NCBI GenBank assembly: GCA_014384285.1
Contig: JACNGE010000011.1
Location: 20,617 to 84,616, forward strand
Direction: 5' to 3'
DNA: 64,000 bases
DNA from: Actinomycetota bacterium
GTDB taxonomy: Bacteria > Actinomycetota > Acidimicrobiia > Actinomarinales > Actinomarinaceae
Numbering within the stretch: the first letter of the stretch is position 1; the number at the start of each line of letters is the position of its first letter. The notes under the pieces were generated by a model, which ran no database searches, was not told the DNA's origin, and saw only the letters and a list, made by a program, of their open reading frames with translations. Position numbers and translations under genes: made by a program. Of this stretch, positions 952 through 13,256 are shown piece after piece.

Positions 952-1226
952 TTTTTTGGGACTCTGGCTGCTTTTAATAAACTTGCATTTTCGTCAATCA
1001 AACCGCATCTTTTTGAAAGTAGTTTTGTGTTAAATGCAAATAGGTTTTTTCTCCAAGTAGCTATAAAGCCATACCCACCTGCTTCATCTAGCTTTGCAAA
1101 AGCTGCATCAAGATCTTTTGTAGATTCGGCTATGACAACTGGTAGAGTTTCATAAGTTGCATCATAATCTTCAGAAGGTTCAATTTTAGATGAAAGTAGC
1201 AATGTTTCTAGAAGTGAACTACTCAT
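948..1226 (-). CDS. hypothetical protein (92 aa) downstream of ptsH
   Basis: ORF overlaps the HPr stop by 8 nt on the same strand. No recognisable motif. Confidence 0.3.
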   Translation of the reverse strand: MSSSLLETLLLSSKIEPSEDYDATYETLPVVIAESTKDLDAAFAKLDEAGGYGFIATWRKNLFAFNTKLLSKRCGLIDENASLLKAARVPKN

Positions 1227-1503
1227 TGTCTAGCAACTCCTCAAATTTCGATAAAAAAAGTTCTTCATCTTCTCCATCAAGCACGATCGTGAAGGGCTTG
1301 TCTTTGGCTATGCCAAGACTTAATATACCAATCATACTTTTTCCATCTTTTTCAATGAGTTTTTCTTCACCAGTCTGTGGATTTTTCTTATTAAATTTAA
1401 CTTTTACTGTACCATCAAACTCTTGTGCAATCTTAACGAATAGACTTGCAGGCCTTGCATGTAAACCAACTTCATCTTTAACAACTAATTCTTTTTCTAA
1501 CAT
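1219..1503 (-). CDS. ptsH: phosphocarrier protein HPr
   Basis: 94 aa. Contains the GLHARPA active-site His motif and the KS(M)IGILSLG regulatory Ser region typical of HPr. Confidence 0.85.
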   Translation of the reverse strand: MLEKELVVKDEVGLHARPASLFVKIAQEFDGTVKVKFNKKNPQTGEEKLIEKDGKSMIGILSLGIAKDKPFTIVLDGEDEELFLSKFEELLDNE

Positions 1504-2583
1504 TTACAAACCTAGCCTTTCAATGTAATTATCACTATAGTTTCCAATTTCCCAAAACTCACTATATATATTAGTTTTTCCCTTTTTTAAGACTGTCTTG
1601 TTAAAACTACTGAAACCTTCAACTTGTGGAAAGTCTTCATGGATAATTATGTCCAATACAATTCTGAATGTATTGACATCTTTATTATTGTTTATCAATA
1701 GTCTTAGAGGGTATTCAAACCTTTCATTTTTAGAAAATTTAATTTCAGGATTTCTGGCAATTCTGTCTACCTGATCTTTTATATCTGGAAGCGCAAATCT
1801 ATCAAGAATAGTTCTACCAAAATCATCTAAGTTTTCATCTGTTTTAGAAAATAAATAATATGCTTCAGATAAACTCTTCACAGCTTGTTCTGCAAACTCT
1901 CTTCCTTCTGTACTTGAAATTATCTCATCAATATAAAAATTACCCTTTGAAAGTCCGTAATAAGCAAGTTTTAAATGGAGACCATTTAAAAGCCATAACT
2001 TTTTATAAAATTCATTTTCATAATTTTTATAAGAAACTATTTTTGATGAATCGAGGGGTTGTAATTCAGTTGCATCATCCAAAATAATTGATCCATAAGT
2101 TTCTACAACAACGTCTAAAGACATTAAAGGCTGGGGAGGAACAATTTTGTCTACAACTGCATCAATAATTTTTAAATTAGGGTTGGGAGATTTTATTTTT
2201 GATCCTGTATTGCTCGATGCTCTGTACATGTTTTCAAAAGCTATAAATACTTGTTCTTCTTTGTGGTCAAGCATGGCTACTTTTTCAAAGATTCCCTCTA
2301 CAAACTTTGGTCCAACAGAAGTTGTAACTATGTCAGCACTTAGCAATACTTCATTTAATTTTTGAGTATCTTCTAAATGTACTGCTCTAATATTTTTTAT
2401 TTTCTGCTTGTTAAATCCATTTATATCAAGAGATTTTATTGTATATTGACCTTGTTCGTTTATTTGATTAACTATATCTGTGTTTACATCTACAAATATC
2501 ACTTCACAGTCATTATCTTGAAGTACCGGAGCAATGAACCCTCTTCCTATATTGCCAGCACCAAAATGAACAGCGTGTTTCAT
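1504..2583 (-). CDS. mtlD: mannitol-1-phosphate 5-dehydrogenase
   Basis: N-terminal HFGAGNIGRGFIAPVL Rossmann signature characteristic of MtlD. 359 aa. Stop/start abuts ptsH. Confidence 0.8.
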   Translation of the reverse strand: MKHAVHFGAGNIGRGFIAPVLQDNDCEVIFVDVNTDIVNQINEQGQYTIKSLDINGFNKQKIKNIRAVHLEDTQKLNEVLLSADIVTTSVGPKFVEGIFEKVAMLDHKEEQVFIAFENMYRASSNTGSKIKSPNPNLKIIDAVVDKIVPPQPLMSLDVVVETYGSIILDDATELQPLDSSKIVSYKNYENEFYKKLWLLNGLHLKLAYYGLSKGNFYIDEIISSTEGREFAEQAVKSLSEAYYLFSKTDENLDDFGRTILDRFALPDIKDQVDRIARNPEIKFSKNERFEYPLRLLINNNKDVNTFRIVLDIIIHEDFPQVEGFSSFNKTVLKKGKTNIYSEFWEIGNYSDNYIERLGL

Positions 2584-3023
2584 AGGCTCATAGATAAAAG
2601 ATTAAAAATATTTTCTACAGATGATTCTTTCCAAAGTTTTTTAGCATCTTCCTCTTCTTCTATTGCATCAGCTAAAGCTGATAATACTCCCATGTGATCA
2701 TCGGAATTGGCTGCAATGCCGACAATTACATACGCCATCTCCTCGTTCCAAAAAACTCCATCAGGTACTTGGATTACACTGATTCCAGTGTGTTTAACAT
2801 GTTTAGAACCCTCTGCCATGCCATGAGGTATGGCAACACCATTGCCTATATATGTGGCAAAAGATTGTGTTTCAAGCTTTTCGAGCATTGATTGGATGTA
2901 TTCTTTCTCTACATAGCCATTCTGAAAAAGAATTTCTCCAGCCATAATTGTTGCATCTTCTTTTGAAGTAAATGCTTGGCCTGTAACTATAGATTCTTTG
3001 ACTAATACCTCATTTTGATTCAT
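2580..3023 (-). CDS. mtlF: PTS EIIA, mannitol/fructose type (PTS_EIIA_2)
   Basis: 147 aa with the GVAIPHG phosphorylation-site motif. Overlaps mtlD by 4 nt. Confidence 0.75.
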   Translation of the reverse strand: MNQNEVLVKESIVTGQAFTSKEDATIMAGEILFQNGYVEKEYIQSMLEKLETQSFATYIGNGVAIPHGMAEGSKHVKHTGISVIQVPDGVFWNEEMAYVIVGIAANSDDHMGVLSALADAIEEEEDAKKLWKESSVENIFNLLSMSL

Positions 3024-3388
3024 GAAGAGGTGATTTCATTACCCTCTGATAAATCTGAAATAAGTTTTTTAAGAGATGGGTCATTCATAAACATTGTAAA
3101 TTGAACGATAACTGCATTTTCAGGTGCTGCTGCCTTTGCTGCTCCAGAAAGTCCTGTGTGACAGACAACTATATCGGAGTCTGCAGGAATTTGGGTTGCA
3201 GGTGCATGAACGATTTCTACATCTAATCCAGCTTTTTTTGCTTTTTTAATTAGGCCATTTTTAACCATTAAACTTGATCCGGCACCAGCTTCACACGCTA
3301 GGCAAATCTTTTTGACATCCGCTGCTTGTATTGAACTCATATTTTCCTCCAAAAAAAATTGACTTGAGGATTTTACTCCCCAAGTCAA
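3020..3388 (-). CDS. PTS EIIB, mannitol-type, as a stand-alone gene
   Basis: 122 aa. CLACEAGAGSSLM resembles the MtlA IIB Cys-loop (C.AG.GSS.M). Overlaps the EIIA gene by 4 nt. Confidence 0.65.
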   Translation of the reverse strand: MTWGVKSSSQFFLEENMSSIQAADVKKICLACEAGAGSSLMVKNGLIKKAKKAGLDVEIVHAPATQIPADSDIVVCHTGLSGAAKAAAPENAVIVQFTMFMNDPSLKKLISDLSEGNEITSS

Positions 3389-3408
3389 TTATAACTTAAT
3401 AGTTTATG

Positions 3409-4470
3409 TTAGACAGTAGGTATATTGCTTTCGATAGTAGCTTCTACGCCTGCGTCTGTTTCTTTGATTGGGCGAGCTCTTAGTAAGATAACACCGACTA
3501 CAGCAGATGCTGCTGTTGCGATTGCCACTCCACCGAGAACTGCAAATGCCCCACCTTTTGGAAGCATAGCAATGTATGCAAAAATACTTCCTGGTGATGG
3601 AGGTCCTACAAGACCTGCTCCGGTTGCTACGAACCAAAGGTCAGCTGAAATTCCACCAGCCCACATTGCGATGATCATAATTGGATGACCAAGGACATAT
3701 GGGAAATAGATTTCGTGAATTCCTCCAAAGAAATGGATAATTATTGAGCCAGGTGCGGATTCTTTCCACATGCCTGTACCAGCAAACCAATATGCTAGAA
3801 GTAATCCAAGTCCTGGACCTGGGTTTGTTTCTAGTAAGAAATATATTGATTGACCAGCTTCTGCTGACTCAGCTGCTCCAAGAGGTGTTAACACACCTTG
3901 GTTTACAGCATTGTTCAAGAACAATACTTTTGCAACTTCAATAGGAATGTCAGCTAACGGAACTAGACCACTGTCTACTAACGCTGCTGCACCATTTCCT
4001 AATGCTTCTGTTATTGCATCAAGTATTGGACTGATAATGTTAAAAGCTAGAACAGCAAGACCCCAACCCAAAATACCGAGTGAGAAGTTGTCATATAACA
4101 TCTCAAAACCTTCTGGTATATTGTCTTGTAATCTACTATCCACTTGCTTCAGTACCCAAGCTGCTGCTGGACCAATGGCCATAGCACCTAGGAACTGTGG
4201 TGAAGATGTAGCAACAATAATTGCTGTTGTAACAACTGCACCGATTACACCACCTCTATGACCATGAACCATTTTTCCACCTGTATAACCTAATAGAAGT
4301 GGAAGAAGAGTCAGAATCATAGGACCTACCATTTGGACCAAATCTTCGTTTGGCAACCAACCAGTAGGTATATAAAGTGCTGTAATTAAACCCCAAGCAA
4401 TGAAAGCACCAATATTAGGAATAACCATTCCTGACATAGCACCGCCAACGCGTTGTATGGATTCTTTCAT
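3409..4470 (-). CDS. mtlA: PTS EIIC, mannitol-specific permease
   Basis: 353 aa polytopic membrane protein. N-terminus MKESIQRVGGAMSGMVIPNIGAFIAWG is typical of the MtlA IIC domain. Confidence 0.8.
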   Translation of the reverse strand: MKESIQRVGGAMSGMVIPNIGAFIAWGLITALYIPTGWLPNEDLVQMVGPMILTLLPLLLGYTGGKMVHGHRGGVIGAVVTTAIIVATSSPQFLGAMAIGPAAAWVLKQVDSRLQDNIPEGFEMLYDNFSLGILGWGLAVLAFNIISPILDAITEALGNGAAALVDSGLVPLADIPIEVAKVLFLNNAVNQGVLTPLGAAESAEAGQSIYFLLETNPGPGLGLLLAYWFAGTGMWKESAPGSIIIHFFGGIHEIYFPYVLGHPIMIIAMWAGGISADLWFVATGAGLVGPPSPGSIFAYIAMLPKGGAFAVLGGVAIATAASAVVGVILLRARPIKETDAGVEATIESNIPTV

Positions 4471-4534: not shown

Positions 4535-5044
4535 TTGATGTTTCACTTTGACTTTCGTTCATCTAAAATTAAATATGTAACTAAATTGTTGCTAAAAAGT
4601 CTATTTTTTAGACCAATTCAACAAAAAAGACTTGATTCATTAAAAAAAGGGGTTTTTTTGAAAAATATACTTATTTTTCTTGTTTTAATTGTCTTTTTGG
4701 CGGCAATTTCTATCGGAGCAACAGGATCTTTAGTTTCAGGAACATCAGGTGTATTTAATAAGGTACAAGGTGAGGTTTTTCAGGAAACATCCAGTGAAGT
4801 CATTATTGAAGATGATAAATTATTCATTTCTATAAATAAAAAAGATAAAGAAAATACTGAAAAAAGTGTTATCGATTGCCTTAATTTTTACTCGGATAAG
4901 TACCCTGATCTACTGGTATACACCTGTGAGATAGTTGTTAGAACTAACATAATTATTGATGATAGTTGTAATTACTTAACTGGAGTACTGACAAAGAAGT
5001 ACGCAGAAGAATCTATAACTTTAAACTACAACAGTAGCTGTTAG
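4535..5044 (+). CDS. hypothetical membrane-anchored or secreted protein
   Basis: 169 aa with a hydrophobic segment (LIFLVLIVFLAAISIGA) near the N-terminus. No known motif. True start uncertain. Confidence 0.3.
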   Translation: MMFHFDFRSSKIKYVTKLLLKSLFFRPIQQKRLDSLKKGVFLKNILIFLVLIVFLAAISIGATGSLVSGTSGVFNKVQGEVFQETSSEVIIEDDKLFISINKKDKENTEKSVIDCLNFYSDKYPDLLVYTCEIVVRTNIIIDDSCNYLTGVLTKKYAEESITLNYNSSC

Positions 5045-5319
5045 TCAAATAGAGAGCCGAGTAGACTTTCTCCCTCAACTTCAATTTCTGCAAGAGGCTC
5101 ACCTACATTAACCATCGAACCTTCTTCAGCAATTAGTTTTGTAATTTTTCCATCAAATGGACTATCTAGATCCATATCGACCTTGTCGGTAGCAATCTCA
5201 GCTATCACATCACCTTTTTTTACTTCATCTCCAACATTTACTTTCCAAGTTAACAGTTCTGCTTCTGTCATTTGGTCAGACATCGCAGGAAGAATAATAT
5301 TTTCATTGCTCATTTTCAA
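5041..5319 (-). CDS. stand-alone lipoyl-attachment domain protein; an E2-like lipoyl domain with no catalytic domain
   Basis: 92 aa. IATDKVDMDLDSPFDGKITKL matches the lipoyl-lysine motif (..TDKA/V..). The ORF stops after a single domain. Confidence 0.7.
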   Translation of the reverse strand: MKMSNENIILPAMSDQMTEAELLTWKVNVGDEVKKGDVIAEIATDKVDMDLDSPFDGKITKLIAEEGSMVNVGEPLAEIEVEGESLLGSLFD

Positions 5320-6298
5320 TCATCTCCTTTATTTTTTGTACGATATCCTCTTCTTGAGGTATCACTGTTGTTTCTAAATGTTTTGCAGACGGCATAGGAC
5401 TATGTAGACCAGCTAATAATTCTGGTGATTGATTTAGTGCTTTGAATGCACGAGAAGTAACTACTTCAGATATTAAGGTAGAGCCAACAGAGCTACTCGC
5501 AGGGGCTTCTTGGCAAACTAATAGTCTTTTAGTTTTCTCAACTGAGTTAATTACTGATTCTGAATCCATAGGTGCTAAAGTCAATAAATCAATAATTTCA
5601 ATAGAGTAATCTGTTAGGGAATCTTCTTTTGCAGCACTTATAACACTATTTACCATGTTTGAATATGAGACAACAGTAATATCATTCCCCTCTTGAATAA
5701 CTTTTGATTTACCAAGCTCTGATGAATCACTAGGCATAGGTCCTAAATTTACTTCGGACTTAAGTTTGTAAATTAACTTATGTTCCATAAAAATTACAGG
5801 ATTTGGATCAACGAAGGAAGCTAAAAGTAGATCAAATGCATTTTGAGGATTTGATGGAGTTACAACTTTTAAGCCTGGTACGTGACAAAACCATGACTCT
5901 AACGACTGACTGTGTTGTGCTGCTGCACCTGTACCAGCGCCACTAGCTCCTCTTACAATCATTGGAACATTCACTGCTCCTCCATACATGAAATGTAATT
6001 TCGCAGCCTGATTTACAATTGGATCCATCGCATTTACAATAAAGTCACTAAATTGCATCTCAACAATTGGCTTAGAGCCAGTAATAGCTGCACCGACGGC
6101 TAAACCGGCAATAACATCTTCTGAAATTGGTGTATCTTTAATTCTTTCATGACCATATTTTTCTAACAAACCATCTGTTACGCCAAAAGCCCCACCATAT
6201 ACTCCTATATCTTCACCTGCAATGAATGTTGTATCGTTTGAGTCTAAACAAAGAGATAGTGCTTCTTTGATTGCTTGCCCTGTTGTCATTTCAGGCAT
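5303..6298 (-). CDS. 2-oxoacid/acetoin dehydrogenase E1 component, beta subunit (TPP-dependent)
   Basis: 331 aa. N-terminus is the classic E1-beta pattern (..TTGQAIKEAL..IAGEDIGVYGGAFGVTDGLLEKYG..RIKDTPISE..), with a transketolase-like C-terminal domain. Confidence 0.8.
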   Translation of the reverse strand: MPEMTTGQAIKEALSLCLDSNDTTFIAGEDIGVYGGAFGVTDGLLEKYGHERIKDTPISEDVIAGLAVGAAITGSKPIVEMQFSDFIVNAMDPIVNQAAKLHFMYGGAVNVPMIVRGASGAGTGAAAQHSQSLESWFCHVPGLKVVTPSNPQNAFDLLLASFVDPNPVIFMEHKLIYKLKSEVNLGPMPSDSSELGKSKVIQEGNDITVVSYSNMVNSVISAAKEDSLTDYSIEIIDLLTLAPMDSESVINSVEKTKRLLVCQEAPASSSVGSTLISEVVTSRAFKALNQSPELLAGLHSPMPSAKHLETTVIPQEEDIVQKIKEMIENEQ

Positions 6299-7244
6299 AA
6301 GAATCCTCCTCTAAATTGGTTTTAGGACTTTCAGGTGATTCTAAAGCCTTTTTAACTGATTCTCTGATTAGGTTTTTTACTTCGACTTCAACCTTTTTTA
6401 ATTCGTCAATTTCTACTTTTTCTTCAGTTAATTTACCAATAAATCGTTTCAAAGGATCTTTTTCTTCTTTCCAAAAATTAATTTCATCTGATGTTCTATA
6501 CAAATTACGATCAGATTTTGAATGACCTCTATATCTATAAGTTACAGATTCAATAAACATTGGTTTTCCTGAACTTTTTATTTTTTCTTTACACTTAGAT
6601 ACAGTCTCATAGACCTCTTCAACATCGTTACCATCTATAGAGACACTTTTGATTCCATAAGATTCAGCTCTTTGAGTAATAGAACCTCCTGCAACAGCAT
6701 TTTCTGACGCCATGGACATGCCATATTGATTATTTTCACATACAAATAAGACTGGTAGGTCCCAAAGAGAAGCAAGGTTTAATGCCTCATGAAATGACCC
6801 TTCGTTTACAGCACCATCTCCAAAAAAACAAAGAACAATATTTTCAATTTTTTGCATTTTTAAAGATAGAGCTGCTCCTACTGAAATTGTTAAACTACCT
6901 GCAACAATTCCATTTGCACCTAGGTTCCCATTTGATAAATCGGCAATATGCATAGAGCCACCTCTGCCTCTACAGTATCCATCCTCTCTGCCGAGTAATT
7001 CAGCAAACATTTTGTAAGGGTCTGCACCTTTTGCTAAACAGTGGCCATGGCCTCGATGAGTAGAAGTAATTAAATCTTTTTTTTCTAAAGCTAGGCATGC
7101 ACCAGTAGCGGTAGCCTCTTGCCCAATAGATAAATGCATAGTTCCGTGCAACAACCCCCTTGAAAACATCTCTTCCAAGGCCTCTTCAAATAAACGAATA
7201 AGGAGCATCATTCGATATAGTTCTAATTTATTTTCTTTACTCAC
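6291..7244 (-). CDS. 2-oxoacid/acetoin dehydrogenase E1 component, alpha subunit (TPP-binding)
   Basis: 317 aa. TPP motif FFGDGAVNEGSFHEALNLASLWDLPVLFVCENNQYGMSM and the YRYRGHSKSD phosphorylation-loop region. Confidence 0.8.
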   Translation of the reverse strand: MSKENKLELYRMMLLIRLFEEALEEMFSRGLLHGTMHLSIGQEATATGACLALEKKDLITSTHRGHGHCLAKGADPYKMFAELLGREDGYCRGRGGSMHIADLSNGNLGANGIVAGSLTISVGAALSLKMQKIENIVLCFFGDGAVNEGSFHEALNLASLWDLPVLFVCENNQYGMSMASENAVAGGSITQRAESYGIKSVSIDGNDVEEVYETVSKCKEKIKSSGKPMFIESVTYRYRGHSKSDRNLYRTSDEINFWKEEKDPLKRFIGKLTEEKVEIDELKKVEVEVKNLIRESVKKALESPESPKTNLEEDSYA

Positions 7245-7254
7245 TTTTACCTTT

Positions 7255-8505
7255 TTAATTATTTTGTTTACTGCGTAACTTATTTATTAGGTTGTCAGGC
7301 AGTTCAATAGAGTCTCTAGGAATAGGTTCTCCTTGTTTAACCTCTCCGACAACGGTTGCTCCCTCAATCAGACCTAAGGGGGCTAGCCCCTCTGTTTCTG
7401 AATAGGGGTAAGCAACTCCATAGGAGCAGAAGCCACCAATTCCATCTATTGTGTCTCCGGGTTTCAAATTTTTCTTTGCATGACCAATTACCTCTGAAAT
7501 CCATGTTGTTGGCTGTAGTCCTGGTTCGTTATTAATAATTGCCATTCCAACACTTCTTGGTGCTTCGACAGAAGCTAAATGATAGGGCCTGTAAAGAGTG
7601 TAATAAGGGCCTTCACCCATAGACAGATATGCCATTTCCTCAATAATTGTTGGGTTATCTGTTGTAACAATTGAAAATACTCCTGGCGCTGGTCCAAAAG
7701 CAAAATCTACTCTCCCAGGTTCTTTCAAAACACCTCCATCTGATGTTGGAATTAGAGTCTTGTTTAGCTCTGAAACTTCACTAACAGGCCCATTCATTCC
7801 AACCTTGTCTAAAGGCATGCCTATGCCATTAGACAAAGAGGTCATCTCAATCATTGTTTTACTACCATCTACAAAGCTTGCAAGCATTTTTGGATTCATA
7901 TTTTTTTGTACTGCTCTTTCTTTTAATGAATCAGGTGTAGCAGTTTGATCTAATGGATTGTTTTTTCCTTTTCCAATACAAACTACTTCAAAACCTATAT
8001 CAACTGAGAAGTCATACAATTCCTTGCATGCCACAGGTTCATCCCCATTTGCAACACTATATACTATTCCTTTTTCTTTTGCTTTTTGAGCTAGGTATAG
8101 ACCTATCGTGATATCTGTTTCAACATTAAGCATTAAAATATGTTTACCTGCTTCAATACAACTTGAGGCTACTTCTGCACCAACCCATGGAACCCCTGTA
8201 GCTTCAAATACAATATCTATTGGAAGTTCTGCCAACTGTTTGGCGTCGTTAACTATTCCGCCATGACCGTTTGAGATTGAAGAAATTGCATCTTTGTTAT
8301 GCCCTATACTTTTCATGCCAGCAAGACCTAAGGCGTTTTCTGCTCTTTTATTGTCAATGTCAGCACAAGCTACTAATTCCATGCCAGGAATACGACTAAT
8401 TTGAGCTGCTAAGCCAGAACCCATTTGCCCAGCACCAGCAAGGCCAATACGTACTGGCCTTCCCAAATCTTTCTCTCTTTTAATAAGTTCTTGTGTGAAG
8501 TTCAT
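7255..8505 (-). CDS. NAD(P)-dependent oxidoreductase with homoserine-dehydrogenase-like Rossmann domain and C-terminal SAF domain
   Basis: 416 aa. N-terminal GLAGAGQMGSG dinucleotide-binding motif. C-terminal Gly-rich beta-rich region (LKPGDTIDGIGGF..) looks like a SAF domain. Confidence 0.5.
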   Translation of the reverse strand: MNFTQELIKREKDLGRPVRIGLAGAGQMGSGLAAQISRIPGMELVACADIDNKRAENALGLAGMKSIGHNKDAISSISNGHGGIVNDAKQLAELPIDIVFEATGVPWVGAEVASSCIEAGKHILMLNVETDITIGLYLAQKAKEKGIVYSVANGDEPVACKELYDFSVDIGFEVVCIGKGKNNPLDQTATPDSLKERAVQKNMNPKMLASFVDGSKTMIEMTSLSNGIGMPLDKVGMNGPVSEVSELNKTLIPTSDGGVLKEPGRVDFAFGPAPGVFSIVTTDNPTIIEEMAYLSMGEGPYYTLYRPYHLASVEAPRSVGMAIINNEPGLQPTTWISEVIGHAKKNLKPGDTIDGIGGFCSYGVAYPYSETEGLAPLGLIEGATVVGEVKQGEPIPRDSIELPDNLINKLRSKQNN

Positions 8506-8862
8506 TTAATTAATCTCTATCGTGTCGTCTACTTTTACTTCTGGCTTATTGGAAAAACTACAATTAACATCTCCAGGTAATGCTGCTTCTGTTGATGAAT
8601 CAAGTTTTAGAACTAGGTGACCTAAGTTAACAAAATTTTCATTTGCTACGGGGCCAACTGCTGTAACCGTGAGCTCTTCGTTAGATAAATTTATTGTTGT
8701 TCCAACTACAATTTCTCCAGTAACTTCTTTTAACTCATGGACAACGGCTACATCTTGTAGTTCTTCTGGAGCATTGTCTCCAAAAAATACAACTATTCCC
8801 TCTTCTAAAAATAAGTGGGCTTGTTCCCCAATTTTTACTATTTTAGAAGAGTAGACCCCCAC
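8506..8862 (-). CDS. srlB: PTS EIIA, glucitol/sorbitol family
   Basis: 118 aa. Pattern ..TAVGPVANENF.NLGHLVLKLD....LPGDV.. is collinear with E. coli SrlB (TAVGSVAEDNLRELGHVTLRFD...FPGTV). Confidence 0.7.
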   Translation of the reverse strand: MGVYSSKIVKIGEQAHLFLEEGIVVFFGDNAPEELQDVAVVHELKEVTGEIVVGTTINLSNEELTVTAVGPVANENFVNLGHLVLKLDSSTEAALPGDVNCSFSNKPEVKVDDTIEIN

Positions 8863-9239
8863 TATATTTCAGTAATCTGATCTTCGCCTACGCCTGAAAC
8901 AAAGTTTTCTTCTCTAATGAACTGGGCCAACGGACCTGCTGGAGAAGTGTCATGTATGTCAATGGTTGGAACACCCTTCATTGGATAAACTCCTATTCTT
9001 GCAGTTCCACCGCAGTCAATTACCGCACAGGCCATAGCTTTAAAACCACCCTCTGGAGATGATTTAAAACCGTCAAATGGCTCTGCACCAGTCATATCTG
9101 CAATTTTTTGTGCTACTGGATGAATACCTCCACCGGTAATACAAACAACATATTTTTTTTCATCTGTAGGCTTTACTTCTAATGGGCCTCCCCATCCTCC
9201 AGGTCCTCTTTCGATTTTTACCTTTTTGTATTCTGCCAT
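8862..9239 (-). CDS. srlE: glucitol/sorbitol PTS EIIB domain; matches the N-terminal half of SrlE, encoded as a separate ORF
   Basis: 125 aa. KIERGPGGWGGPLEVKP...VIDCGGTARIGVYPMKGVPTIDIH...GPLAQFI is collinear with E. coli SrlE residues ~1-120. Confidence 0.75.
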   Translation of the reverse strand: MAEYKKVKIERGPGGWGGPLEVKPTDEKKYVVCITGGGIHPVAQKIADMTGAEPFDGFKSSPEGGFKAMACAVIDCGGTARIGVYPMKGVPTIDIHDTSPAGPLAQFIREENFVSGVGEDQITEI

Positions 9240-9258
9240 TTTTGCTCCTTAAATTATC

Positions 9259-9290
9259 TGTGACGCTCTAATTTTACTCAGAGCGCCACA
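9259..9290 (-). other. strong RNA hairpin in the spacer between the two srlE halves (11-bp stem including one G-U pair, 10-nt loop)
   Basis: tgtgacgctct-aattttactc-agagcgccaca. On the minus-strand transcript the arms pair perfectly except for one G-U. Not followed by a U-run. The RBS aaggag for the downstream ORF follows. Confidence 0.35.
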
Positions 9291-9316
9291 AAAAATGAAA
9301 TTGTTGTCTTTGAAGT

Positions 9317-9841
9317 TTACAAACCTAGTGCAAACAACCAACCAACAACAACTGAGATAGGTCCAGTTATCATTCTACTTGTTAGAACGGCTGGAACACC
9401 AATCTCTACTGTTTCCGGTTCTGCCTCACCTAATGCGAGACCTACTGGAACGAAATCACAACCAACTTGTGGGTTGATTGCAAATAATGCCGGCAGTGCC
9501 ATAGAAACATCTACGTTTCCACGTCCAATCTCTGTTCCAACTAGAACACCAACGATTTGAGCTATTACAGCTCCAGGTCCTAGCAATGGTGACAAGAATG
9601 GAATTGAACAAACGATACAGACAAGCATCAAACCAACAAGGTTATTTGCAAATCCTTTAATTCCTTCAGCTATAACATCTCCAACTCCTGTTGAAAGGAT
9701 TAATCCGATAACACCAGCAACGAATGCCATGAATGGAATAATTGTTTGAATACATAGCTGTATAGCATCTCGACCTGCTTGAAATAGTTTTCCAACTACT
9801 CCACCAACAGATCTACCTATTTTTTCAATCATACTTTGCAT
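9317..9841 (-). CDS. srlE: glucitol/sorbitol PTS membrane domain; matches the C-terminal half of SrlE, encoded upstream of the IIB half
   Basis: 174 aa. ..LFQAGRDAIQLCIQTIIPFMAFVAGVIGLI...SIPFLSPLLGPGAVIAQIVGVLVG...LPALFAINPQVGCDFVPVGL.. is collinear with E. coli SrlE residues ~150-319. Confidence 0.75.
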   Translation of the reverse strand: MQSMIEKIGRSVGGVVGKLFQAGRDAIQLCIQTIIPFMAFVAGVIGLILSTGVGDVIAEGIKGFANNLVGLMLVCIVCSIPFLSPLLGPGAVIAQIVGVLVGTEIGRGNVDVSMALPALFAINPQVGCDFVPVGLALGEAEPETVEIGVPAVLTSRMITGPISVVVGWLFALGL

Positions 9842-10383
9842 TATTCAGCACCGACCTTTCTTGAAGACATTATTGAATAAATGATGTCAGTTGTGACACC
9901 TCTAATCAAAATAACGACAAGCCCAGCAAGTAAATATCTTACTGCTAAAGGCGTTACTAATTCTGGAGCCGCAATCTCAACTCCAGCAGCAATTCCTAAC
10001 CATACGAATAACTCTCCACCATTTGCATGTGGAAATATTCCCGTAATTGGATGAACAAAACTAACTGCAGCATCATAGAATGCTGGTTTGTTTTTTTCTG
10101 GTAAAAAAGTACCGAATGTATAGCAAACTGGGTTTGTCAGCATAAACACAGCTACAAAAGGTAGCAATGTATATCGAACTGGAACATACATCCAGCCCTC
10201 CTGAGCAGCCCACTTGGCAAAGTTTTCAACCTTATCTTCACCAATGAATTTGACCAATGCATTTACTGCGGTCAAAAACACCACTATCAACGGGATAATA
10301 CCAGTAGTCAAGCTGACAAATACATCTGCTGATGTTCTAAAAACACCAATAAACGCATCGGCCATACTAACTAATGTGTCCAT
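9841..10383 (-). CDS. srlA: glucitol/sorbitol PTS EIIC component
   Basis: 180 aa. ..GIIPLIVVFLTAVNALVKFIGEDKVENFAKWAA...FLPEKNKPAFYDAA..PHANGGELFVWLGIAAG.. is collinear with E. coli SrlA. Confidence 0.8.
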   Translation of the reverse strand: MDTLVSMADAFIGVFRTSADVFVSLTTGIIPLIVVFLTAVNALVKFIGEDKVENFAKWAAQEGWMYVPVRYTLLPFVAVFMLTNPVCYTFGTFLPEKNKPAFYDAAVSFVHPITGIFPHANGGELFVWLGIAAGVEIAAPELVTPLAVRYLLAGLVVILIRGVTTDIIYSIMSSRKVGAE

Positions 10384-10404
10384 TTTTCCCCCTTCTTTAT
10401 ATTT

Positions 10405-10782
10405 CTAATTAGAAACACTCTCTGAATCCTCATTAATTTTTTTAATTAATGTATTTGCAGCCATGGCCGCAGCATCATTAAGTGGATCTTTTCCGCCAGA
10501 GTCCGAAAACTCTGACAAACTTTTGTTAATCATCTCTGTAACTTGTTGTCCTTTTGCAAAAACTGTTGTTCCTTTGAGTGTTATAGCGTCGACTATAATT
10601 TTTTGAGGATTGGCAGACATGGCTAGATAAACTCTTTTTCTTCCCCATTTGGGCTGATTGGTACCTATAGCAACAGTTAAATTTTCACCGTGTAGTTCTT
10701 TTACAACATTCATAAAACTTACTGCTTGTTTTTTTGCAAGCTGCATTTGTAGAACCCACATACCAGCAAGTCCTAAAAACAA
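10405..10782 (-). CDS. gutM: glucitol operon activator GutM-like small protein
   Basis: 125 aa with an N-terminal TM helix. Central ..IVDAITLKGTTVFAKGQQV.. resembles GutM (..IVDTLFMKGLTVFARPQKI..). First gene of the srl-like operon. Confidence 0.5.
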   Translation of the reverse strand: MFLGLAGMWVLQMQLAKKQAVSFMNVVKELHGENLTVAIGTNQPKWGRKRVYLAMSANPQKIIVDAITLKGTTVFAKGQQVTEMINKSLSEFSDSGGKDPLNDAAAMAANTLIKKINEDSESVSN

Positions 10783-10867
10783 AGCTCCTAATGCAATAGG
10801 TGATTCTAAAATAATTAATTTCCCTTACTACTTAATTACATTCTATATTCAAAGAGTTTTGGTTTGC

Positions 10868-10887
10868 AATTTTTACAAGTAAAAATT
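10868..10887. promoter_or_regulatory. 20-bp AT-rich perfect palindrome AATTTTTAC-AA-GTAAAAATT between ispD-like and gutM
   Basis: Read from the sequence, ~85 nt upstream of the gutM start. Candidate operator, or a weak terminator for the upstream gene. Confidence 0.25.
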
Positions 10888-10935
10888 TAATTTTAGATAT
10901 AACGGCTTAGAAGAATGGTGCTAAGTAGATGTGTC

Positions 10936-11628
10936 CTATTCTTGAGTAATTATTTTTTCTAATTCAAATATATCCTCAATAAAAGTTACTTTCATATTTT
11001 TTGGGTCTCCAGGGACAATCACTGCCTCACGACCTACATATTTGGAGACGCACTCTGTAGTATCGACGGCCTGCCAGTTATCTAATTTTGCTAATTCATA
11101 AGATTTCCACAATTCATCTGCTGGGAATATTTGAGGAGTTTGTATTTCAACAATGGTTTCATCTTCAGAATGATCTGAATTGGAACCTTTTTTTAAAGAA
11201 ATATTTTTTGAGTTAAAACCGGGTGCTGAAGCTCCGTTTTTTCTAGCGACATCGATTAATTCATCTAGTAAATAAGAAGGTAATAAAGGTCTGGCTCCAT
11301 CATGGATTAAAATTAAATCATCTTCTGATACGTTTCCAGAATTTTTAAGGTACATAAGACCCTCATACTCACTGTCATGCCTAGTTTTTCCCCCTACTGT
11401 TACACCCACTAATTTTTCAGTGTCGACAAGCTCAATAACCCTATTTGTTTTTTCCCAATCTTCTTCACGAATTACAAGAAGTATTGAATCTACATCTTCA
11501 GATTTCTCTAGAGTTTCAAGAGGCCAACAGAGTGCAGGTTTTCTTCCAATTGGAAAATACACTTTGTTTTCTTCATCAGTAAATCTATGACTTGAGCCGC
11601 CAGCTAATAATATTGCATGAGTTTTCAT
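10936..11628 (-). CDS. IspD/TarI-family sugar-phosphate cytidylyltransferase (MobA-like nucleotidyltransferase fold)
   Basis: 230 aa. N-terminal MKTHAILLAGGSSHRF.. glycine-rich NTP-transferase loop. Overlaps ptsI by 4 nt. Confidence 0.55.
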   Translation of the reverse strand: MKTHAILLAGGSSHRFTDEENKVYFPIGRKPALCWPLETLEKSEDVDSILLVIREEDWEKTNRVIELVDTEKLVGVTVGGKTRHDSEYEGLMYLKNSGNVSEDDLILIHDGARPLLPSYLLDELIDVARKNGASAPGFNSKNISLKKGSNSDHSEDETIVEIQTPQIFPADELWKSYELAKLDNWQAVDTTECVSKYVGREAVIVPGDPKNMKVTFIEDIFELEKIITQE

Positions 11629-13256
11629 ATATTTAAGTCGCTTAATAATTCTCTAACTTCTTTGCTATTTTTTGATTTAAGAATTTTAAGCTTTAGTTCA
11701 TTTGTATCAAAAGAATTTAGATTAATCAATTTATCATAAACAAATGGTGCTGCCGACGGTGACATACTGAATTTGCGCAACCCTAAAATATACAAAACCA
11801 CAGCTGCATCTGGATCAGAGGCCATCTCTCCACATACAGAAACTTCTTTATTGGTTGATTCTCCAACTTTGAAAACATTTTCTAGAACCCTAAGAATTGC
11901 GGGATGTAGTGGGTCTTGGTATTCAAATAGACTGGGGTTGCCTCTATCAGCTGCCATTATGTATTGAGTTAAGTCATTGGTGCCAATTGAGAAGAAGTCT
12001 ACATACTCAGAAAAATCTTCTACGAGTATTGTTGACGATGGGGTTTCTATCATTATTCCAACTTCCGGAACTTTTTTATTTAAATTTTTAGCGATCTCTA
12101 AAATTATATTTTTACTTTTTATAAAATCTTCGATAGTTGAAATCATAGGGAACATTATTTTTACACGATCTGCATCTTTAGAAGTAAGGATTGACTCGAT
12201 TTGTGTTCTAAATAGTTCTTCAATTTGAAGCGAAAGACGTATTCCCCTAACTCCTAAAAAAGGGTTTTCTTCAACCGGTAAGCTTAAATAAGCTACTTGT
12301 TTATCTCCACCTATGTCAAGTGTCCTATAAGTTATTGTTCCAGTAAACTTTTGTTGTATTTTTTCTAGTATCTCTTTTTGTTCATCAACCGTAGGAATTG
12401 ATGACCTGTCTAAATAAATAAACTCAGACCGGAACAATCCTATAGAATTTAAAAAATCGTGATTGAAAGACTCAATCTCTTCATTAGAGCCTACATTGAT
12501 TAAAAACTCAAAATCTTGTTCTTTGTATGAAGATTCCGTAAAGTTAGTTCTTATCTCTTCTTCGCGTTTTTTATTTTTGTTCATCGTCTCTATAACTTTT
12601 TTATCTGGATTTATAATCAACTCTCCACTTGATCCATCTAATGCAATTAGGTCTTCGTTCATTATTTCTTCAATACCTTTTCCAACACCAATAACACACG
12701 GTATACCCAAATTTTTTGCTACGATCACGGCATGAGAAGTTGGGCCACCATCTTTTAGAATAATTCCTACTACATTTCCCAGATTCATAGAAGAGGTGTC
12801 TGCGGGAGTTAAATCATCTGCAACAAGTATTGAATTTTCACTTAGATTAACTTTTATCTCTTTTTCCTGCATTGTGTTTATTAGATGTTTGCCAACTGAG
12901 AGAATGTCTTCTGCTCTCTGTTTAAAATATTCATCTTCCATACTTGCCAATATCTTGGCACTCGAATCAAATATACTGTATACCTCTTTAACAGATGCTT
13001 GATTGTCAGCTGTCACTTGTCCTGTGATTTCAGGATCTTGAAGTATTAATGTATAAGCATCTAAGACATCTGCTTCTTCTATTCTGTCATTATCTTTGAA
13101 GGTTTTAATTTGTGATTCGAATTTAGAAATAAGTTTTGTAACAGCCTCTTGAAATATTATCTTTCCGTTGGTGTCTAGGTCAACATTATTTATATACACA
13201 TAAGCTTTACCAATTGAACTTCCAATTGAGACACCATTTCCATTAACACTTTTCAT
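11625..13256 (-). CDS. ptsI: phosphoenolpyruvate-protein phosphotransferase (PTS enzyme I)
   Basis: 543 aa. Contains GGPTSHAVIVAKNLGIPCVIGVG (phospho-His region) and ..EVGIMIETPS.. / GTNDLTQY motifs of the PEP-utilising domain. Confidence 0.85.
   Translation of the reverse strand: MKSVNGNGVSIGSSIGKAYVYINNVDLDTNGKIIFQEAVTKLISKFESQIKTFKDNDRIEEADVLDAYTLILQDPEITGQVTADNQASVKEVYSIFDSSAKILASMEDEYFKQRAEDILSVGKHLINTMQEKEIKVNLSENSILVADDLTPADTSSMNLGNVVGIILKDGGPTSHAVIVAKNLGIPCVIGVGKGIEEIMNEDLIALDGSSGELIINPDKKVIETMNKNKKREEEIRTNFTESSYKEQDFEFLINVGSNEEIESFNHDFLNSIGLFRSEFIYLDRSSIPTVDEQKEILEKIQQKFTGTITYRTLDIGGDKQVAYLSLPVEENPFLGVRGIRLSLQIEELFRTQIESILTSKDADRVKIMFPMISTIEDFIKSKNIILEIAKNLNKKVPEVGIMIETPSSTILVEDFSEYVDFFSIGTNDLTQYIMAADRGNPSLFEYQDPLHPAILRVLENVFKVGESTNKEVSVCGEMASDPDAAVVLYILGLRKFSMSPSAAPFVYDKLINLNSFDTNELKLKILKSKNSKEVRELLSDLNI

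Follow-up and report, generated by a model that had tools for sequence, protein, structure and literature searches.

Introduction

The glucitol (srl/gut) operon of Enterobacteria and Firmicutes encodes, in this order, the activator GutM and the EIIC1, EIIBC and EIIA components of a phosphotransferase system (PTS) driven by enzyme I (EI) and HPr, together with a sorbitol-6-phosphate dehydrogenase (SrlD/GutF) of the short-chain dehydrogenase/reductase (SDR) type. In acetoin dehydrogenase (AcoA/AcoB, AcoC, AcoL), heterotetramer-type, thiamine pyrophosphate (TPP)-dependent E1 alpha and E1 beta subunits are followed by a lipoyl-bearing partner, and an alpha-hydroxy methyl ketone is converted to an aldehyde and acetyl-lipoyl. 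In the present study, a locus in which components resembling those of both systems flank a predicted enzyme of isoprenoid metabolism was considered. This locus lies on the minus strand, from position 10782 to position 5041, of a 64,000-nucleotide stretch of DNA from an Actinomycetota bacterium of the order Actinomarinales (GenBank assembly GCA_014384285.1, contig JACNGE010000011.1, positions 20,617 to 84,616; hereafter, the window) and comprises gutM, srlA, a split srlE, srlB and genes encoding a 416-amino acid (aa) oxidoreductase, E1 alpha, E1 beta and a 92-aa protein that is only a lipoyl domain.

The oxidoreductase resembles DXR-II, an enzyme found in 2010 as a second, unrelated catalyst of the first committed reaction in the pathway through 2-C-methyl-D-erythritol 4-phosphate (hereafter, MEP). 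The superfamily was divided by Carretero-Paulet et al. (2013; PMC3847144) into DXR-II, 11 members of which were verified to make MEP, and the uncharacterized groups DLO1 and DLO2. Conversion of 1-deoxy-D-xylulose 5-phosphate (hereafter, DXP) and NADPH to MEP was demonstrated by complementation of E. coli dxr for DXR-II proteins other than the one addressed here. According to the same survey, K191, K193 and T229 anchor fosmidomycin and the substrate, whereas G121, H250, R320 and V351 discriminate DXR-II from DLO1 and DLO2, with four DXR-II proteins having no His at H250 (PMC3847144). The DXR-II members listed included no Actinobacteria, and their distribution was patchy, the enzyme being found alongside DXR-I, in Chloroflexus, which relies on the mevalonate (MVA) pathway only, and in Finegoldia and Anaerococcus, which have neither the MEP nor the MVA pathway; the Finegoldia enzyme is active. 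Gene context was not analysed in that work (PMC3847144), and a 2026 review, in which the Dxr reaction is listed as reversible, still recognizes no defining pattern in the distribution of DXR-II (PMC13001223). As for the non-phosphorylated polyol, 2-C-methyl-D-erythritol (ME), the sorbitol PTS of Salmonella is reported to be an ME transporter, with dxr mutants surviving when ME is supplied (Testa 2004, as cited in PMC3994034).

Results

A predicted DXR-II reductoisomerase between PTS and E1 genes

A preliminary description of the window had presented the 416-aa product as an NAD-binding protein with a C-terminal SAF domain. Both a Rossmann motif (GAGQMG, residues 24-29) and a C-terminal SAF domain (residues 343-400) are indeed present, yet the protein is more than a generic SAF oxidoreductase and can, on the basis of its sequence, be assigned to the DXR-II/DRL family (hereafter, DRL). 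The match to PF21135 covers residues 154-314, and full-length alignment was obtained with the Brucella abortus DRL of structures 3UPY and 3UPL (E 3.5e-94; ~40-43% identity), with which the protein shares the same three-domain architecture. In Brucella numbering, the fosmidomycin/substrate anchors K191, K193 and T229 (motifs GKGKNNP and DGSKTM) are conserved, as are G121, R320 and Y322, and V351 is replaced conservatively by Ile. Unlike its Brucella counterpart, the window DRL presents Asn in place of H250, a position that is not conserved across the actinobacterial clade in an alignment of relatives, and is encoded within a transporter/E1 operon.

When 188 relatives were aligned, proteins with N191 together with L/M229, and those with T193 together with S/A229, formed separate groups matching the descriptions of DLO1 and DLO2, while a GGKKT signature was common to the window protein, the Brucella DRL and all cluster-associated proteins. 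In a neighbour-joining tree, the window DRL fell into the clade of the verified Brucella enzyme. The possibility raised earlier that this protein is an ordinary, characterized polyol-phosphate dehydrogenase is thus not borne out. Enzymes of this family interconvert DXP and MEP, from which it is predicted that a branched C5 polyol phosphate is both oxidized and rearranged in its carbon skeleton.

DRL genes recur with PTS and E1 genes across phyla

One genome per GTDB species was scanned with an alignment of DXR-II relatives. At least 597 relatives were confirmed, of which the best 80 were kept, a sample rather than a census, in which the close Actinomarinales relatives (75-94% identity) are not included. 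The flanks of these 80 loci were searched with the window's own proteins, and the 35 loci having at least 5 kb on each side were treated as a full-flank set. Gut-family PTS genes were found at 47 of the 80 loci and E1 alpha/beta genes at 39, with 36 loci containing both. In the full-flank set, PTS and E1 genes were each found at 23 loci and occurred together at 22, the loci with both spanning at least six phyla. The lineages concerned include Streptomyces, Amycolatopsis, Prauserella, Microbacteriaceae, Nitriliruptorales, freshwater acI (Planktophila), Rubrobacter/Rubrobacteraceae, Ktedonobacterales and other Chloroflexota, Spirochaetes, Tepidanaerobacteraceae, Chelatococcus and Dormiibacterota. 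As such, the combination of srl, SAF-domain dehydrogenase and E1 genes does recur, and the E1 and lipoyl genes do not represent a separate acetoin operon that fails to travel with the srl genes.

A clean example is provided by locus L067, where genes for a SorC regulator, GutM, SrlA, SrlE, SrlB, DRL, E1 alpha, E1 beta and a full E2 follow one another. In other lineages, the transport genes differ. Plasmid pAtCFBP7129b of Agrobacterium contains, in one operon, genes for a solute-binding protein, two permeases, an ATPase, a PfkB kinase, DRL, E1 alpha, E1 beta, E2, LpdA and LipA. In S. americanum, S. meliloti Rm41 and S. fredii NGR234, the last of which was named in the DXR-II family previously (PMC3847144), an operon encoding DRL, E1 alpha, E1 beta, E2 and LpdA is accompanied by a divergent ABC transporter-plus-kinase operon and a SorC regulator. 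The DRLs of these rhizobia share 71-73% identity with the characterized Brucella DXR-II, and the rhizobial solute-binding protein is 519 aa long. In Priestia, an MFS transporter and an FGGY kinase are encoded with DRL and E1/E2/E3, whereas in Terrarubrum, a Gut PTS and PtsP are encoded with DRL, E1 alpha, E1 beta and E2. The uptake and phosphorylation system is hence interchangeable (PTS, ABC transporter plus kinase or MFS transporter plus kinase), while what stays constant in most lineages is a core of DXR-II with an E1/lipoyl complex after it. Such a core is the hallmark expected of a catabolic route whose E1 acts on the product of DXR-II.

Two further gene contexts were encountered. In Listeria monocytogenes, the DXR-II gene (lmo0546 position) heads the "sorbitol" PTS operon lmo0545-0542, and on a megaplasmid of Ligilactobacillus salivarius (L090, 8001-15572), genes for DRL, EIIA, EIIC, EIIB, GutM and a SorC-like regulator precede a fructose-6-phosphate aldolase-type gene (Fsa) and a transketolase gene (Tkt), which take the place of E1/E2. 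Members of the L. salivarius group are mevalonate users. The Fsa and Tkt gene products may offer an alternative means of disposing of the DRL product in such an organism. The DRL-linked Gut PTS was also considered as the sorbitol operon of L. salivarius, an assignment that was rejected given that a separate, canonical sorbitol operon with gutF (SDR) has been described in this species (PMC4165912). The second widespread context of DXR-II genes comprises a LacI or SorC regulator, a FucI-like isomerase, an FGGY kinase, DRL, a Zn-dependent alcohol dehydrogenase and an SIS protein (L040, 5660-13041; L061, L062, L068, L069, L074, L081, L082 and others) and is found in Clostridia, Anaerolineae, Caldilineae, Spirochaetes and Aerophobetes; its substrate may be some other branched sugar or polyol.

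The E1 subunits form a group of their own

As had been proposed, the two genes downstream of the DRL gene encode a TPP-dependent E1 alpha/beta pair (Table 1). Their best profile matches are to the alpha-proteobacterial/mitochondrial pyruvate dehydrogenase (PDH) complex, the catalytic-loop motifs of which are conserved. The YRYRGHSKSD loop of E1 alpha and the AAQHSQ motif of E1 beta, both of which are intact, are taken here to carry the histidines used in reductive acylation. At the same time, E1 alpha falls below the cut-off of the PDH equivalog, as does its Agrobacterium orthologue (383 bits). Furthermore, the locus differs from those encoding PDH in its PTS/DXR-II operon context and in the absence of an E2 core from the window.

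When compared with the window protein, the E1 alphas of the different clusters scored 320-427 bits, as opposed to 274 bits for an additional E1 set found at one of these loci, in Tamaricihabitans, and 196 bits for human PDH E1 alpha. On these grounds, the cluster E1 alphas are considered a single, cross-phylum orthologous group. Identity to the E1 alpha of the rhizobial DRL operons is 53-54%. In two Chloroflexota loci, E1 alpha and E1 beta seem to be fused in a single open reading frame (ORF) of 664-694 aa (L036, 1-1992, minus strand; L038, 2007-4088, plus strand).

A graded series of E2 proteins ends in a lipoyl domain

The preliminary description had noted an orphan lipoyl module with no E2 catalytic domain or E3 nearby. 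The 92-aa protein is indeed free of E3-binding and acyltransferase domains, no E2 catalytic domain was detected in any frame of the 64-kb window, and no Pyr_redox/E3 or 2-oxoacid_dh family member was found among the called genes of an identical contig covering 11.7-64 kb or in the 1-5 kb region. Orthologous clusters of other taxa, however, do encode an E2 with lipoyl, E3-binding and acyltransferase domains beside the E1. A classical E2 with the DHRxxDG motif follows E1 beta in L067, L010, L022, Agrobacterium and Sinorhizobium, whereas in Aminobacter (L093, 11332-12708) and Terrarubrum (L095, 11349-12650), the same slot is taken by an AcoC-type protein (lipoyl domain plus alpha/beta-hydrolase) that passes the acetoin dehydrogenase E2 equivalog NF011457 (405 and 378 bits, respectively; cut-off 307). 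In acI (Planktophila; L045, 3739-4770; also L027 and L034), a 343-aa E2 adjoining E1 beta retains the lipoyl and E3-binding domains, with DFYDG replacing DHRxxDG. This protein looks like an intermediate stage on the way to the lipoyl-only state of Actinomarinales. Across lineages, the only constant element after E1 beta is a lipoyl domain. The lipoyl-only protein would thus not reflect a primary design but rather the minimal form of an ancestral E2, at the reduced end of a series running from full E2 through AcoC-type and His-less E2 to the lipoyl domain alone.

The best NCBIfam match of the window lipoyl protein is to the AcoC N-terminus (NF011457), which, together with the AcoC-type partners found elsewhere, points to an acyloin-cleaving complex. 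That the gene is a decaying remnant was considered and rejected, since its product is 71% identical to the 90-aa homologue of locus L001, the other operon proteins of these lineages being 53-87% identical; the gene accordingly appears to be under selection in the window lineage. LpdA is encoded within the operon in rhizobia and Priestia. In complete Actinomarina genomes, E3 is encoded in 83 of 84, a divergent sucB-like E2 in 78 of 84 and a 2-oxoglutarate dehydrogenase (OGDH) E1 in none (preprint 10.64898/2026.04.03.716425). The E3 and sucB-like E2 are plausible trans partners of the lipoyl carrier.

MEP-pathway genes adjoin the cluster

Directly upstream of the operon lies a ptsI-ispD pair that had been overlooked in the preliminary description. 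The IspD-like protein scored 142 bits with TIGR00453 (cut-off 181) and 85 bits with the TarI model, and so is closer to IspD than to TarI. IspD was encoded at 33 of the 80 DRL loci and at 15 of the 35 with full flanks, some loci encoding IspF as well, and PtsI adjoins the cluster at many of them. IspF, or an apparent IspDF fusion, is encoded directly beside the PTS-DRL-E1 cluster in acI (L045, 916-1392, minus strand) and Microbacteriaceae, IspD and IspF share one ORF in L023, L024, L026 and L029, and certain acI loci contain only IspF, DRL and IspD. As for DXP synthesis, the presence of DXS beside DRL was considered and rejected, as no DXS- or transketolase-sized homologue was found in any locus flank.

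In single-cell Ca. Actinomarina loci (L058, 7666-13614; L065; L077), the genes observed are ptsI, ispD, DRL, UPF0047, AhpC-like and mtlA. Relative to the window, the proteins of other Actinomarina are 46% (DRL), 37.5% (IspD) and 79% (MtlA) identical. Either the module is present in some members of the order and absent from others, or DRL and IspD have been replaced. Given that these other genomes keep only ptsI, ispD and DRL at this locus, DXR-II probably also serves as housekeeping DXR in Actinomarinales. No dxs/dxr terms, K01662 or K00099 occur in the supplementary data of published Actinomarinales reconstructions (PMC7771536), and the text of the Actinomarina preprint (10.64898/2026.04.03.716425) makes no mention of isoprenoids or PTS.

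The Gut-type PTS and organization of the locus

The gutM-srlA-srlE-srlB genes were located where the preliminary description had placed them, and their family assignments were confirmed by profile matches (Table 1). A correction is, however, needed in the case of srlE, which is not a single gene but two ORFs in permuted order, with the membrane (EIIC2) half first and, after a 77-nt gap, the EIIB half (8862-9841, minus strand). Relative to NF049924 (cut-off 400), the EIIB and membrane halves scored 265 and 160 bits singly; both domains are thus present, with their order reversed. The same split order is seen in acI, Nitriliruptorales, Chloroflexota and Spirochaete loci, whereas SrlE is a single chain in Streptomyces, Tepidanaerobacteraceae and Listeria. 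The EIIA protein falls below NCBIfam equivalog cut-offs. Apart from the split SrlE, the window operon differs from the glucitol operon in having no DeoR/GutR repressor in the window, a SorC-type regulator being found in other lineages, and in continuing into the DXR-II and E1/lipoyl genes. As claimed earlier, srlD is also absent: no SDR is encoded between 5041 and 13256, and the sole adh_short gene of the window lies ~30 kb away, at ~40.6 kb.

The operon is part of a PTS island on the minus strand (13256 to 1219) that comprises ptsI, ispD, a 153-nt spacer, the operon, mannitol PTS genes, mtlD and ptsH. From gutM to the lipoyl gene, successive junctions measure +21, -1, +77, -1, 0, +10, -8 and -17 nt, so that the tight coupling described previously holds, with the stops and starts of srlB and the DRL, E1 alpha, E1 beta and lipoyl genes abutting or overlapping. 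An identical gene order, including a 90-aa lipoyl-only gene, was found on four marine metagenome contigs of independent origin, with proteins 53-87% identical to those of the window. The arrangement is, therefore, not an accident of assembly. Syntenic contigs, derived from Tara and further marine assemblies, encode WhiB, and in related contigs a 127-aa unannotated ORF occupies the position of a 169-aa ORF of the window (4535-5044, plus strand) that matches no Pfam family, is convergent to the operon and overlaps the stop of the lipoyl gene by 4 nt.

Table 1. Coordinates and family assignments of features of the PTS island in the window.
Feature	Position	Strand	Evidence and remarks
ptsI (PTS EI, general component)	11625..13256	-	PF02896, PF00391, PF05524; stop overlaps ispD start by 4 nt
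ispD-like MEP cytidylyltransferase	10936..11628	-	PF01128 118 bits; coupled translationally to ptsI
ispD-gutM spacer, 153 nt	10783..10935	-	Sole sizeable gap upstream of operon; weak sigma-70-like match TTGCAA-18-TAGAAT at 10869-10840 (candidate)
gutM-type activator	10405..10782	-	PF06923 54 bits
srlA, EIIC1 of Gut-family PTS	9841..10383	-	PF03608 221 bits; NF049923 205 bits (cut-off 150)
srlE membrane (EIIC2) half, own ORF	9317..9841	-	PF07663 153 bits; covers NF049924 positions 157-329
srlE EIIB half, own ORF, IDCGGT motif	8862..9239	-	PF03612 175 bits; covers NF049924 positions 1-118
srlB, EIIA(Gut)	8506..8862	-	PF03829 110 bits
DXR-II/DRL-family reductoisomerase (predicted), 416 aa, C-terminal SAF	7255..8505	-	PF21135 DRL_cat 202 bits; SAF 23 bits; Rossmann GAGQMG
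TPP-dependent E1 alpha, YRYRGHSKSD loop	6291..7244	-	PF00676 271 bits; TIGR03182 (PDH equivalog) 356 bits (cut-off 393.85)
E1 beta	5303..6298	-	PF02779 126 bits, PF02780 86 bits; NF006667 (PDH subfamily) 326 bits (cut-off 321)
Free-standing lipoyl-domain protein, 92 aa, ATDKV motif	5041..5319	-	PF00364 75 bits
Mannitol PTS and mtlD	1504-4470	-	Between operon and ptsH
ptsH (HPr, general PTS carrier)	1219..1503	-	PF00381 73 bits; far end of same PTS island

Between 3300 and 13800, promoter-like sites were fewer than in shuffled sequences (27 vs. 32.7), and no convincing terminator was detected inside the operon or just after it. Neither Rfam searches at gathering thresholds nor ARAGORN returned any hit in the whole window, and no riboswitch or leader RNA was thus detected. 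The source of the window is a marine actinobacterium of low GC content (~35%). Elsewhere in the window (~32.9-58 kb), genes that are unexpected in a streamlined genome were observed: two encode cytochromes P450, while the others encode members of the penicillin-amidase (841 aa) and ceramidase families, a protein of 794 aa in which NHL repeats are faintly recognizable and a protein weakly matching a BglII-like endonuclease.

Discussion

The cluster considered here is a new combination of known families: its proteins were assigned to families by profile matches, its genes are arranged as an operon and its DRL and E1 genes are conserved together across phyla. The preliminary description had envisaged phosphorylating import, oxidation and TPP-dependent cleavage by something other than the textbook glucitol route. 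Departure from that route is supported by the replacement of the SDR dehydrogenase by DXR-II and by the co-conservation of E1 with DRL, and the genes do behave as one functional unit; what does not hold is simple oxidation of a hexitol phosphate. Rather, it is proposed, with a probability of about one half, that the locus is a module for the uptake, salvage and catabolism of ME, centred on MEP and DXP. No description of ME catabolism or of this cluster was found in a search of full-text literature, the coverage of which is incomplete.

According to this proposal, EI and HPr (ptsI, ptsH) would power the Gut-family EII (SrlA, split SrlE and SrlB), which would import ME, or else a branched or deoxy C5 polyol very similar to it, and deliver MEP. 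The MEP could then enter isoprenoid synthesis through IspD, co-transcribed with ptsI, constituting salvage, or be converted by DXR-II to DXP. The physiological direction of the enzyme would, in the latter case, be at least partly the reverse of that of biosynthetic DXR-II. As an alpha-hydroxy methyl ketone, DXP amounts to an acetoin that has been extended and phosphorylated, and it would suit an E1 of the acetoin dehydrogenase type. E1 alpha/beta would split this phosphorylated acyloin as the acetoin dehydrogenase E1 does acetoin, releasing glyceraldehyde-3-phosphate and retaining hydroxyethyl-TPP on the enzyme, with the C2 unit next being moved reductively onto the lipoyl-lysine of the 92-aa carrier to yield acetyl-lipoyl. 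E2 and E3 encoded elsewhere in the genome would transfer the acetyl group to CoA and re-oxidize the lipoyl group. With phosphoenolpyruvate (PEP) as phosphoryl source, the net reaction would be C5 polyol + PEP + CoA + 2 NAD(P)+ -> pyruvate + glyceraldehyde-3-P + acetyl-CoA + 2 NAD(P)H. The identity of the PTS substrate, the catabolic direction of DXR-II, the use of DXP by E1 and the trans action of E2 and E3 are each steps that we infer. Relative to acetoin dehydrogenase, the reaction type proposed is the same, yet the substrate would be a phosphorylated C5 acyloin, the partner is only a lipoyl domain, the operon encodes no E3 and AcoR/sigma-54 regulation was not observed. There are plausible sources of ME, given that 2-C-methyl-D-erythritol 2,4-cyclodiphosphate (MEcDP) is exported by microbes and plastids and that ME and ME-glucosides accumulate in plants (PMC11192765).

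Several observations weigh against the ME proposal. Pyruvate may yet be the E1 substrate, as the E1 is very PDH-like in sequence: E1 alpha scores 356 bits with the PDH equivalog (cut-off 393.85), E1 beta exceeds the cut-off of the PDH subfamily model and neither catalytic-His motif has been lost. DRL does not always feed an E1, seeing that Listeria and L. salivarius have PTS and DRL without E1/E2, and that the FGGY/FucI/SIS context of DXR-II is without PTS, E1/E2 or IspD. Other Actinomarina genomes contain only ptsI, ispD and DRL at this locus, with neither Gut PTS nor E1/lipoyl genes, as would suit a DRL that is simply their housekeeping DXR. Finally, with no acyltransferase in the window and no DHRxxDG His in the acI E2, acetyl-CoA formation requires a hypothetical trans partner.

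A rival reading is that the imported compound is a different polyol (glucitol, a pentitol, a tetritol or an apiitol-like hydroxymethyl-branched compound, for example), with DRL acting as the dehydrogenase or oxidoisomerase of its phosphate and E1/E2 cleaving the resulting ketose phosphate oxidatively to acetyl- or glycolyl-CoA and a smaller sugar phosphate. The Gut components pass or approach glucitol equivalogs (SrlA, 205 bits vs. a cut-off of 150), this PTS is labelled "sorbitol" in Actinomarinales reconstructions (PMC7771536), relatives of DRL found with an FGGY kinase, Zn-dependent alcohol dehydrogenase, FucI-like isomerase and SIS protein but no E1/E2 imply that the family is active in other sugar contexts, and H250 is not conserved in the actinobacterial clade. 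Nonetheless, the residues that hold the phosphonate or phosphate group of fosmidomycin and DXP are unchanged, as are the DXR-II-specific G121 and R320, and close orthologues of the verified Brucella enzyme (71-73% identity) are encoded inside the same kind of DRL-E1/E2/E3 operon. Moreover, ordinary ketose phosphates, such as fructose 6-phosphate or xylulose 5-phosphate, need no E1/E2/E3 complex, the co-localization of IspD and IspF would go unexplained and L. salivarius retains a separate, canonical SDR-type sorbitol operon. On balance, import of another polyol is considered unlikely.

It is more doubtful still that the genes are unrelated neighbours in a streamlined genome, in which DRL and IspD would be housekeeping MEP-pathway enzymes, the PTS would import glucitol, and the E1 and lipoyl proteins would belong to a pyruvate or acetoin dehydrogenase. 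The ptsI-ispD-DRL arrangement of other Actinomarina, without PTS or E1 genes, and the acI loci with just IspF, DRL and IspD are in line with such an explanation, as is the proximity of the E1 subunits to PDH models; Actinomarina, moreover, have no OGDH E1 and few E1s are reported (preprint 10.64898/2026.04.03.716425), such that the window E1 could be that of PDH. Chance proximity does not, however, sit well with the occurrence of PTS and E1 genes alongside DRL at 22 of the 35 full-flank loci in at least six phyla, nor with the overlapping or abutting genes from srlB to the lipoyl gene, nor with cluster E1 alphas that are closer to one another across phyla (320-427 bits) than to a second E1 encoded at the same locus (274 bits). 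In rhizobia, where PDH and MEP-pathway genes are chromosomal, the genes in question form single operons on accessory plasmids.

Lastly, an alternative upper MEP pathway, in which the E1 would stand in for DXP synthase by joining hydroxyethyl-TPP from pyruvate to glyceraldehyde-3-phosphate and so feed DXR-II and IspD in dxs-less genomes, with the PTS merely adding ME salvage, is very improbable, for although mutated E1 enzymes are reported to make DXP or deoxyxylulose (PMC3424233), IspD and IspF adjoin the cluster in acI and Actinomarinales, E2 catalytic function was lost in exactly these two lineages and no DXS-sized gene lies in any locus flank, the lipoyl domain, with its intact lipoyl-lysine motif, is conserved (71%) even in the most reduced genomes, carboligation offers no role for the full E2 of most lineages or for the LpdA and LipA added in rhizobia, the histidine of the E1 alpha GHS loop is kept, and the rhizobial operons are of a regulated, accessory, catabolic style, with transporters and kinases.

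Returning to the ME module, gene neighbourhood offers a concrete and testable answer to the question of DXR-II distribution, namely, that the enzyme is accompanied by a system for uptake and phosphorylation and by a TPP cleavage complex that depends on lipoyl. If its role is in catabolism or salvage, as opposed to biosynthesis, the presence of DXR-II in bacteria with no biosynthetic need for it would be explained. Tentatively, and with somewhat less assurance than the ME module itself, it can be suggested that DXR-II is natively the first committed enzyme of an undescribed ME catabolic/salvage pathway, the partner of which would be a "DXP dehydrogenase complex" that converts DXP to glyceraldehyde-3-phosphate and acetyl-CoA and so represents a new member of the acetoin dehydrogenase class. 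In Brucella, Bartonella and streamlined Actinobacteria, the enzyme would then have been co-opted secondarily for biosynthesis, and abundant planktonic Actinobacteria (Actinomarinales, acI) would harvest ME released by phototrophs both as carbon source and as ready-made isoprenoid precursor. Culturable carriers of the cluster or of the DRL-PTS combination include Agrobacterium (A. tumefaciens CFBP7129), Sinorhizobium (S. meliloti Rm41, plasmid pRM41A; S. fredii NGR234), Listeria (L. monocytogenes), Streptomyces (S. ipomoeae) and Priestia (P. aryabhattai XT37).

If true, the proposal would define a new pathway of carbon-source use, extend E1/E2/E3 complexes to a new class of substrate and have a bearing on drug targeting of the fosmidomycin type and on the engineering of MEP flux. 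In two actinobacterial lineages that are among the most abundant in aquatic habitats, the "sorbitol PTS" would have to be re-annotated, and ME or MEcDP-derived compounds would become a currency exchanged between phototrophs or plants and heterotrophs.

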